Source: a virus. Taken from it: a DNA stretch of 5,467 bases. Shown here one piece after another: positions 2,989 to 5,467 of the stretch. Numbering within the stretch: position 1 is the stretch's first letter; each line of letters opens with the position of its first letter. The notes beneath the pieces are model-generated. The model saw only the letters and a program-made list of their open reading frames with translations, did no database searches and was not told the DNA's origin. A program made the translations under genes and the position numbers. The stretch is from IMG/VR virus record IMGVR_UViG_3300017598_000085; one strand, 5' to 3'.

Positions 2989-4005
2989 ATGGGAAAAACT
3001 AACAGCGGCATGGGAATGCTATCGGCAGCCAGTAATATAGGCGGGCAAATAATGGACGGAATAAACCGAAGAGGACAAGAGAGAAGAAACTTCAGATACC
3101 AAAGGAGACTGATGGGACACCAACAAGAGAACCAAATGGCACTAAATCAACAAGGACATGACTTGTCATACGAAATGTGGAAGAAAACAAACTACCCCGC
3201 ACAAGTAGAAATGATGAAAGAAGCAGGACTAAACCAGGGGTTAATGTATGGAAGCGGCGGCGGAGCAGGAGGAACAACGCAAAGCGGAAGCGGCGGAGGA
3301 GCAGGAGGCGGAAATATGGGGATGTCACCTGCAGGAGGTAGCAAAGGAATAAACATGCTCGAACAAAGCCAAATAGCACTGAACGCATCACAAGCGGATA
3401 AGAATAAGGCAGAAGCAGAAGCTACAAGAGGTTATAGAGCAGACGAAGCGACATCAAACATAAACCTAAAAGAAGCGAATACACAATGGCAAAAAATACA
3501 AAACGACATAGCAAGCGGAACACAACAAGACCAAATGGATGCCATAATATCAGCGGCAACAATTGGAAAAAACGAAGCCCTAAAAAGCGAAGGAACATAC
3601 CAAGAAGAAATAAACATGGTGTTTAAAGAATCAATGGGATTAACGATAGGCAATATCTTAAACCAAGCAAAAGTCGAAAACGTCAAACAAGCCACAGACA
3701 AAATGATAAACGACATGGAACTAGCATGGCAAAAATTAAACATGGACTGGGTAATAGACACAGAAAAAATAAGACAAGGAGACGAAAAAATAAGACAAGG
3801 GGACGAACAAATAGCACAGAAAGACGTTCAAATACTGGTAGACAAATTCAAAGCGGAATTTATAGCAAACCACCCGAGTCTAAGCCAAAGCGTAGGAAAA
3901 ATAGCCGCAGATTTCAAATACGGAATAAATGCAATAGTCAAACAACTAACAGGACAAGATGGCAACAAATACGGAAGAAGAATATCCACAAAAACGGAAT
4001 TCTAA
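2989..4005 (+). CDS. VP2: Minor capsid / DNA pilot protein VP2 (H-like)
   Basis: A 338-codon ORF ending in TAA. The N-terminal block (..YEMWKKTNYPAQVEMMKEAGLNQGLMYGSGGGAGG..) shows the (M/L)K.AGLN..L..G plus Gly-rich pattern typical of microvirus VP2/H proteins. The C-terminal half is Q/E/K/A-rich and looks helical or coiled-coil. The position between capsid and rep also fits. Confidence 0.85.
   Translation: MGKTNSGMGMLSAASNIGGQIMDGINRRGQERRNFRYQRRLMGHQQENQMALNQQGHDLSYEMWKKTNYPAQVEMMKEAGLNQGLMYGSGGGAGGTTQSGSGGGAGGGNMGMSPAGGSKGINMLEQSQIALNASQADKNKAEAEATRGYRADEATSNINLKEANTQWQKIQNDIASGTQQDQMDAIISAATIGKNEALKSEGTYQEEINMVFKESMGLTIGNILNQAKVENVKQATDKMINDMELAWQKLNMDWVIDTEKIRQGDEKIRQGDEQIAQKDVQILVDKFKAEFIANHPSLSQSVGKIAADFKYGINAIVKQLTGQDGNKYGRRISTKTEF
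3763..3804 (+). repeat. Tandem 21-nt duplication inside VP2, encoding EKIRQGD twice
   Basis: 3763-3783 is GAAAAAATAAGACAAGGAGAC and 3784-3804 is GAAAAAATAAGACAAGGGGAC, with one mismatch (3780 A versus 3801 G). A partial third unit (GAACAAATA) follows. Confidence 0.95.
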
Positions 4006-4992
4006 ATGTGCCTATATCCAAGAATAGTCAAAAATCCAAAATACAGAGCAAACAAAAAAAACGGGGGGAACATTCCCCCCGTAACAGATGACAGAAAACT
4101 ATATGTGCCAATAGGATGTCAACAATGCTTTGAATGTAAAAAACAAAAAGCAACGGCATGGAGGGTAAGAATAAACGAAGAAATAAAAGAGAACAAAAAC
4201 GGCAAATTCGTAACACTAACGCTCAGCGATAATTCAATAAAAGAACTACATAAAGCGATAAAAGACAACGAAAAAAGATTCGAAAGAATAATAGACGAAA
4301 ACGGAATAAACGGATATAACCTGGACAATGAAATAGCATCAATAGCAATAAGACGATTCCTAGAAAGATGGTGAAAGAAACATGGAAAAAGTGTAAGACA
4401 TTGGCTAATTACAGAAATAGGAGGAAACAGAACAGAAAGAATACATATCCATGGGATAATATGGACAGATGAAAACGAAAAGGAAATAATAGACAGATGG
4501 AAGTATGGAAGAATACATATAGGAGAATATGTAAACGAAGAGACATCGGGTTATATAGTAAAATACTTACATAAGCAAGACGAAAAACATAAAATATACG
4601 AAAGTAAAATATTCACTAGCGCAGGAATAGGGAAAAACTACATAAACAAACAAACAGAGCAACGACATGAATACAAAAAAGGACAAACAATCGAGTATTA
4701 CAGAGACAAATACGGAGTAAAATACGGACTGCCGATATACTATAAAAACAAGCTATTCACAGACCAGGAGAGAGAAGAACTATGGACAGAGAAGCTAGAT
4801 AATAAAAAAAGGTATATATTCGGCAAAGAGATAGACATAAGCAACGGAGAAGAAACATATAATAGCAGCTTAAAAGAAGCACAAGCAAAGAATAAAAGAA
4901 TGGGATATGGAGACGGGGCAATAAATTGGACAAAGAGAAACTACGAAAACCAAAAACGACTACTTAAATACAAAAAAAGATGGAAAGCGTAG
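4006..4992 (+). CDS. VP4: Rolling-circle replication initiator VP4 (A-like HUH endonuclease), interrupted by an in-frame TGA at 4372-4374
   Basis: The ATG directly abuts the VP2 stop (TAAATG). Upstream of the TGA are the N-terminal Cys cluster (C2, C38, C41, C44) and motif I FVTLTLSD (4207-4230). Downstream, in the same frame, are motif II RIHIHGIIW (HIH at 4444-4452), motif III GYIVKYLHK (4549-4575), then SAGIGKNY and GLPIYYKNK. The frame stays open from 4375 to the TAG at 4990-4992 (205 codons). The first in-frame ATG in that stretch is only about 30 codons from the end, which is why the ORF track missed it. The total is 328 codons including the TGA position. Confidence 0.9.
4061..4082 (+). 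other. Perfect 8-bp GC-rich stem-loop inside the 5' end of rep (ACGGGGGG-AACATT-CCCCCCGT)
   Basis: 4061-4068 pairs perfectly with 4075-4082, leaving a 6-nt loop. It is built from the codons GGG GGG AAC ATT CCC CCC, whereas Gly is mostly GGA and Pro mostly CCA elsewhere in this genome. Confidence 0.6.
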
Positions 4993-5121: not shown

Positions 5122-5226
5122 ATGATAGATATAATACTAGACAACGCAAACGAGATACTGCAATGGATATTGGCAGGAATAGTAATATTCAAAGGGATAT
5201 TTCATACACCGAAACGAAGAAAATGA
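5122..5226 (+). CDS. Small hydrophobic protein with a basic tail (34 aa); second membrane/lysis candidate
   Basis: The ORF runs from ATG 5122 to the TGA at 5224-5226 and was hand-translated as MIDIILDNANEILQWILAGIVIFKGIFHTPKRRK. It has a hydrophobic core of about 16 residues followed by KRRK. If TGA were read as sense, it would gain only 6 more codons before the TAA at 5245-5247. Confidence 0.35.
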   Translation: MIDIILDNANEILQWILAGIVIFKGIFHTPKRRK

Positions 5227-5346: not shown

Positions 5347-5467
5347 AGTTCGTATCTAACGCGCCAAGGCTTGTTCAGGTAGGGAGCAAAAGAAGGTAAC
5401 AAAGGCAGGTGTAATACAACAACACAAAACTCAACATTCTGATGATTACGGGGGAGATAAATAGAGA
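5347..5467. repeat. Right copy of the exact 121-nt terminal direct repeat (circular-genome assembly overlap)
   Basis: Identical to 1-121. Confidence 0.95.

Follow-up and report, generated by a model that had tools for sequence, protein, structure and literature searches.

A single, probably one-off C>T transition to TGA in the replication initiator gene of a metagenome-assembled microvirus

The replication initiator (Rep) gene of the microvirus genome studied here is interrupted by one in-frame TGA (positions 4372–4374, plus strand, Rep codon 123), which we regard, with a probability of roughly 90%, as a one-off private C>T transition by which, in this one assembled genome only, the CGA codon of an invariant Arg123 became a stop, and not as a decoding feature. 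The window, i.e., the whole stretch of DNA that was analysed, comprises 5,467 nt and corresponds to the IMG/VR record IMGVR_UViG_3300017598_000085. An initial annotation, made from its letters, had offered three readings of the interrupted gene: programmed UGA readthrough, a host that reads TGA as sense, and a nonsense mutation or sequencing error. The third is the one borne out by the comparison with related genomes, as the stop is private to the window and both its siblings and its wider relatives encode Arg at this position. One detail of that reading has to be corrected: the transition had been proposed to lead from TGG to TGA, and the actual change is from CGA (Arg) to TGA, that is, C>T.

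The first 121 nt of the window match its last 121 nt exactly (1–121 vs 5347–5467, a repeat without strand). This terminal redundancy indicates a circular genome of 5346 nt that was written out with an overlap. The strand given consists to 45% of A, and all sizeable ORFs in the ORF list of the window are encoded on it, i.e., on the plus strand. They comprise two small overlapping ORFs (96–338 and 245–556), the gene of the 666-aa major capsid protein VP1 (553–2553, with a match to the Pfam family Phage_F), a 110-aa ORF (2558–2890), a 338-aa ORF in the position of the pilot protein VP2 (2989–4005) and the frame of the Rep or VP4-like HUH endonuclease (4006–4992; 328 codons, interrupted at codon 123), which was recognized from its translation, Pfam PF23343 and homologues. 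The order VP1, small ORF, VP2 (pilot), Rep is that of the Alpavirinae-like, Bacteroidales-associated Microviridae, a likeness based on gene order and Rep homologues. In GenBank, the closest entries are listed as unclassified ‘Microviridae sp.’, with Rep proteins at most 57% identical. One of the near-identical sibling contigs described below, L004, also has a total length of 5467 nt, with a rotation that differs from that of the window.

Translation of 4006–4992 gave 328 codons with one internal stop, at codon 123, and the letters of the window confirm the reported context TGG TGA AAG (4369–4377). The placement of the catalytic motifs relative to this stop was likewise as annotated. HUH motif I, FVTLTLSD (codons 68–75; 4207–4230, plus strand), is located upstream, whereas motif II, HIH (codons 147–149; 4444–4452, plus strand), and motif III, YIVKYLHK with two catalytic-type tyrosines (codons 183–190; 4552–4575, plus strand), follow downstream in the same frame. 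Residues F68 and T70 of motif I, H147 and H149 of motif II and Y183, K186 and Y187 of motif III are invariant in alignments of 30 and 50 sequences. When the frame is read through the stop, it matches the Pfam family PF23343 (REP_ORF2-G2P) with 46.8 bits against a cut-off of 27.8, and the match (residues 105–191) spans the interrupted position. Motifs I to III are placed on a single uninterrupted polypeptide in the sibling proteins P0121 and P0123 (328 aa, intact) and not in the window.

If the TGA terminates translation, the product is a 122-aa N-terminal fragment (4006–4371, plus strand, as in the ORF list; identical to protein P0124), which carries the invariant Cys2, Cys38, Cys41 and Cys44 together with motif I and lacks motifs II and III. 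The remainder of the frame does not provide a usable start, as had been noted before: ATG, GTG and TTG are absent in-frame for ~175 codons after the stop, the ORF list of the window contains no ORF of at least 40 aa with one of these starts in the same frame past the stop, and the first in-frame ATT or ATA is codon 135. We therefore rejected reinitiation after the stop, which would in any case yield a product without motif I.

A structural model points in the same direction. The AlphaFold model of the Rep of a 92% identical relative (mean pLDDT 86.8, pTM 0.82) places motif I in strand 66–72, motif II in strand 146–153 and motif III in helix 178–188. Residue 123 is predicted inside helix 103–126, which in this model joins the motif I strand to strands 131–138 and 146–153 and to the motif III helix. 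Given this position within the linking helix, the stop would cut one compact domain. Searching the model against PDB folds returned weak matches (E of at least 0.02), headed by the HUH nuclease domains from Reps of a parvovirus and circovirus type; these matches fit the HUH family and are uninformative on residue 123.

The column of codon 123 is invariant among the relatives of the gene. A protein search with the Rep sequence yielded 2067 homologues, the best of which is a complete protein of 328 aa with 92% identity. Among aligned proteins, all 30 in one alignment and all 50 in another have Arg in this column, within the stretch E-R-W-R-K-K; of the residues that the initial annotation had considered here (W, G, R or other), it is thus R and not W or G. 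At the nucleotide level, two 92% relatives have AGA, and Arg is encoded in all 85 viral loci (AGA 64, CGA 12, AGG 4, CGT 2, CGG 2, CGC 1), which were collected with two retrieval patterns, one demanding Arg at the column and the other not. The same holds for the seven loci derived from bacterial genome assemblies (7 of 7). None of these 85 viral and seven genome-derived loci contains an in-frame stop within Rep.

The origin of the TGA can be traced by means of four contigs from four other JGI samples that are 99.7–99.95% identical to the window, found by a pattern scan and an exact-protein look-up. These siblings are L003 with its identical copy L006 (sample 3300017527), L004 (3300017613), L005 (3300021152) and L007 (3300021183). 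All four have CGA at 4372–4374, with C at position 4372 in place of the T of the window. Close relatives with a sense codon and without TGA, which had been named earlier as a test of whether the stop is a simple knockout, are thus present both among the siblings and among the wider relatives. Compared with every sibling covering the respective site, only three positions are private to the window: 343 (G>A) and 3492 (G>A), both synonymous, and 4372 (C>T, CGA to TGA). From the CGA of the siblings and these three sites it follows that the TGA arose from CGA by one transition, which is either very recent or did not take place in the phage at all. The part of the gene 3′ of the stop (4375–4992) contains zero private changes, so nothing shows that it has spent time as a pseudogene. 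The two private synonymous changes mark the window as a distinct haplotype and not merely as a miscalled copy of a sibling. All three private changes are G>A or C>T transitions, which fits a deamination-type spectrum, with three events being too few for a test.

The protein data give the same picture. A cluster at 90% identity around the closest relative contains four intact Reps of 328 aa and a single fragment of 122 aa, that of the window, and in the protein collection this fragment (P0124) is found on one JGI contig of 5467 nt only. A scan of metagenome contigs with the 32-nt context, in which the codon itself was replaced by NNN, returned no match. The TGA is therefore private, it occupies the place of an invariant Arg and, as detailed below, nothing in its vicinity would promote readthrough. 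We infer that the 122-aa fragment is non-functional and that the change is recent.

Two origins come into question for the stop: a lethal or defective allele of recent date, or a mistake made in base calling or amplification. In case the change occurred in phage DNA, the genome would encode the 122-aa fragment without motifs II and III and would constitute a replication-dead allele. The mutant strand could have been packaged by wild-type proteins in the cell in which it originated, and a minority variant might then have turned into the assembly consensus, for example if one circle was over-amplified. In case the change occurred outside phage DNA, it could have been introduced while the sample was handled, in library preparation or amplification, or in the course of sequencing, assembly or consensus calling. 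Two aspects count against this explanation of a one-off transition. First, the window is an assembly consensus, so that most reads presumably had T at this position, and a lethal allele would be expected at low frequency, unless over-amplification of one molecule or tolerance of the allele had raised it. Second, the two private synonymous changes mentioned above speak for a haplotype of its own.

A nonsense change of this type is unremarkable. Deamination of cytosine, which leads to C>T and is the main form of decay in ssDNA, proceeds ~100 times faster there than in dsDNA and dominates the mutation of ssDNA phages (PMC4032129). Among all C>T and G>A substitutions that the window can undergo in VP1, VP2 and Rep, ~7.7% create a stop, a share that makes one nonsense change unremarkable, and Rep alone has four CGA codons able to become TGA. 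The data series contains a second private nonsense transition, as judged from sequence comparison. In the contig L045 (IMGVR_UViG_3300017527_000215), which shares its sample with L003, one codon of VP1 (position 226–228) has changed from TGG to an in-frame TGA, the only one in this gene. Of 82 loci, 78 have TGG in this column, and the other 10 Trp codons of the gene are TGG as well. When siblings of L045 were sought, only L045 itself was recovered. A literature search on premature stops in Rep genes of microviruses found nothing directly usable. Overall, one private nonsense change or base-call error is no more than would be expected in a microvirus assembled from a metagenome, and it carries little biological weight. 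The two cases found here, in the window and in L045, suggest a practical caution, namely that isolated in-frame TGAs in assembled ssDNA phages should be checked against near-identical contigs before recoding or readthrough is considered.

Several other explanations assume that the allele is real and maintained. The genome could be a truly defective one that persists by co-infection, with Rep supplied in trans by wild-type siblings. We consider this improbable. It is true that wild-type siblings circulate in several related samples and that the structural genes of the window are all intact. However, the allele is present on one contig only, and nothing points to the adaptations of a cheater, as neither a deletion nor an additional origin nor a further private non-synonymous change is present. 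The gene A initiator of phage phiX174 prefers to act in cis, on the genome from which it is made, and rescue of rep mutants in trans is poor. By analogy, this cis preference would make long-term rescue by a helper less likely here as well. A search of the literature on the cis action of phiX174 gene A gave nothing directly usable.

The gene A mutants of phiX174-type phages also offer a close parallel to the interrupted gene. Like the window, these opal or amber conditional-lethal mutants have a one-base stop inside an HUH rolling-circle initiator with the rest of the genome intact, and the mutant in the window would, like them, be viable only with suppression or leakiness. In contrast, they were laboratory mutants kept in suppressor hosts, whereas the window is known only as one metagenomic contig. 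In addition, the Rep of the window belongs to a clade distant from the phiX174-type initiators, with a relation at the Pfam level only (PF23343).

Leakiness without any programme is the basis of another explanation, according to which unprogrammed termination failure lets a few percent of the Rep be completed, with R123W or the wild-type residue, and a natural opal mutant lineage persists in this way. For a catalytic initiator, occasional decoding by Trp-tRNA, or rarely by a near-cognate Arg-tRNA, would suffice. The stop has the context UGA followed by A, and the two further private synonymous changes would fit a lineage that has been replicating for a while. In reporters in E. coli K-12, ~2–4% of UGA readthrough was measured, resulting from competition between Trp-tRNA and RF2 (PMC10570021). 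These rates refer to E. coli, though, and the host here is probably a member of the Bacteroidota, in which they may differ. Moreover, the residue given up for Trp would be an Arg that all of more than 90 relatives share, the RNA 3′ of the stop does not form a stimulatory structure (z = -0.97 and +0.47, see below), and the allele is known from one contig only. Altogether, we judge this explanation very unlikely. Still slimmer is the chance that the TGA allele is both real and viable through basal UGA leakiness, with Trp or a near-cognate Arg inserted at position 123, a low level of initiator and perhaps a free Cys-rich N-terminal fragment. If it were, the allele would be a natural gauge of how little Rep a microvirus needs at minimum, and nothing here suggests so.

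Programmed UGA readthrough, the first option of the initial annotation, would produce the Cys-rich fragment of 122 aa in quantity and full-length Rep in small amounts, in the manner of the A1 protein of phage Qbeta. Its sole support is the layout, i.e., a frame that stays open for 205 codons past the stop without an internal start. What Qbeta and the window have in common is a very small genome in which a long open frame continues past a UGA. However, the stop of Qbeta is conserved and both products are functional, whereas the stop of the window is private and splits a single catalytic domain. TGA was found in none of the four siblings, none of the 85 viral and none of the seven genome-derived loci, nor in the 92% relatives. 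A programmed stop should be conserved, so these comparative data refute programmed readthrough, to which we assign hardly any remaining probability. The surroundings of the stop do not favour it either, as they contain no structure, Rfam family or special context. RNA folds of 4372–4470 and 4340–4420 were no more stable than those of shuffled sequence (z = -0.97 and +0.47, respectively), a DNA fold beside the stop was not significant (z = +0.71), and a search of the window against Rfam, SECIS elements included, gave no family at threshold.

That the host reads TGA as sense, i.e., as Trp (code 4), Gly (code 25) or selenocysteine, is about equally implausible, as it has nothing in its favour beyond the presence of the codon and is contradicted by the invariant Arg column, which is not Trp, Gly or Cys, by the CGA of the siblings and by the use of TGA as a terminator. 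In the window, TGA terminates orfB and a 34-codon ORF, and it terminates Rep in 6 of 80 relatives. The observation that all other Trp codons are TGG and that no other gene has an internal TGA proved correct: 26 TGG codons (orfA, orfB, VP1, orfC, VP2 and Rep) stand against the one in-frame TGA in the window. It had further been argued that recoding would cost nothing because each of the two other TGA stops, at 554 and 5224, is backed up by another stop within 4–7 codons. This applies to the stop at 554, which is followed by a TAG four codons on; after the one at 5224, the next in-frame stop comes only 18 codons on. Selenocysteine insertion is rejected as well, as Rfam matches in the window, SECIS included, remained below threshold and no significant hairpin was found 3′ of the stop. 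A scan of the window for tRNA genes detected none. In-frame TGA is a feature shared with the Spiroplasma phage SpV4 (code 4), the Gracilibacteria and Absconditabacteria (code 25) and stop-recoded crAss-like phages. Recoded genomes contain in-frame TGAs in large numbers, placed in Trp or Gly columns, and they avoid ending genes with TGA. In contrast, the window has one TGA, in an Arg column, and uses TGA for termination as well.

The likely hosts also argue against a deviating code, and together with the invariant Arg column and the terminating TGAs they lead us to reject, as far as sequence can show, the earlier proposal of TGA as Trp or Gly. Bacteroidales, the order with which the relatives are associated, use the standard genetic code. 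Relatives of the Rep with 34–52% identity were found in contigs assigned to this order. Five of the Rep relatives (34–50% identity) are located inside contigs of 39–128 kb, which were assigned to Paludibacteraceae, Bacteroides, Dysgonomonas sp. 521, Phocaeicola and Rikenellaceae. Their embedding in such long contigs suggests that they are integrated Alpavirinae-like prophages and that the wider clade has hosts among the Bacteroidota.

The comparison with the siblings also revealed a divergent stretch in the capsid gene. Next to the end of its contig, L006 has 28 differences to the window in ~110 nt of VP1, compared with only 2 in the remaining 3927 nt. The divergent patch corresponds to 960–1068 of the window, compared with 3928–5001 of L006/L003. 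Recombination or hypervariability of the capsid could account for it, as could an assembly that joined different strains.

Furthermore, the Rep gene contains the strongest inverted repeat of the genome, with the perfect 10-nt arms ACGGGGGGAA/TTCCCCCCGT at 4061–4082, overlapping Rep codons 19–26 (N-G-G-N-I-P-P-V). Folded as ssDNA, this hairpin reaches -11.1 kcal/mol (z = -5.7). Its arms use the rare codons GGG GGG and CCC CCC; genome-wide, GGG accounts for 18 of 126 Gly codons and CCC for 8 of 39 Pro codons. When 67 distinct relatives are compared, the arms co-vary: at the base of the stem C-G alternates with T-A, GGC occurs together with GCC (Pro to Ala) and GGA together with TCC (Pro to Ser), so that pairing is restored. 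The number of cells in which both sides had changed was 36, compared with 8.4 ± 6.5 in shuffles and 1–13 in slid controls. More compensated versions of the hairpin were found in the Bacteroidales-associated relatives that appear to be integrated. Based on this pattern of substitutions, we consider the element at 4061–4082 a candidate for a replication-related hairpin within the coding sequence.

A second hairpin of the type G5-loop-C5, GGGGGCTAACAACCCCC, with extended arms is located at 2888–2922, in the intergenic region from the 110-aa ORF to VP2. A strict pattern search identified a G5/C5 hairpin ~0.8–1.5 kb upstream of rep in ~30 of 84 relatives, some of which lack the hairpin inside rep, and ~8 more of the 84 have a G5/C5 match elsewhere on the contig, possibly at the equivalent site if the circle is followed over its junction. 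For other microviruses, it has been suggested that hairpins of this kind are minus-strand origins (PMC9865509), and the one at 2888–2922 is possibly a minus-strand origin or a terminator.
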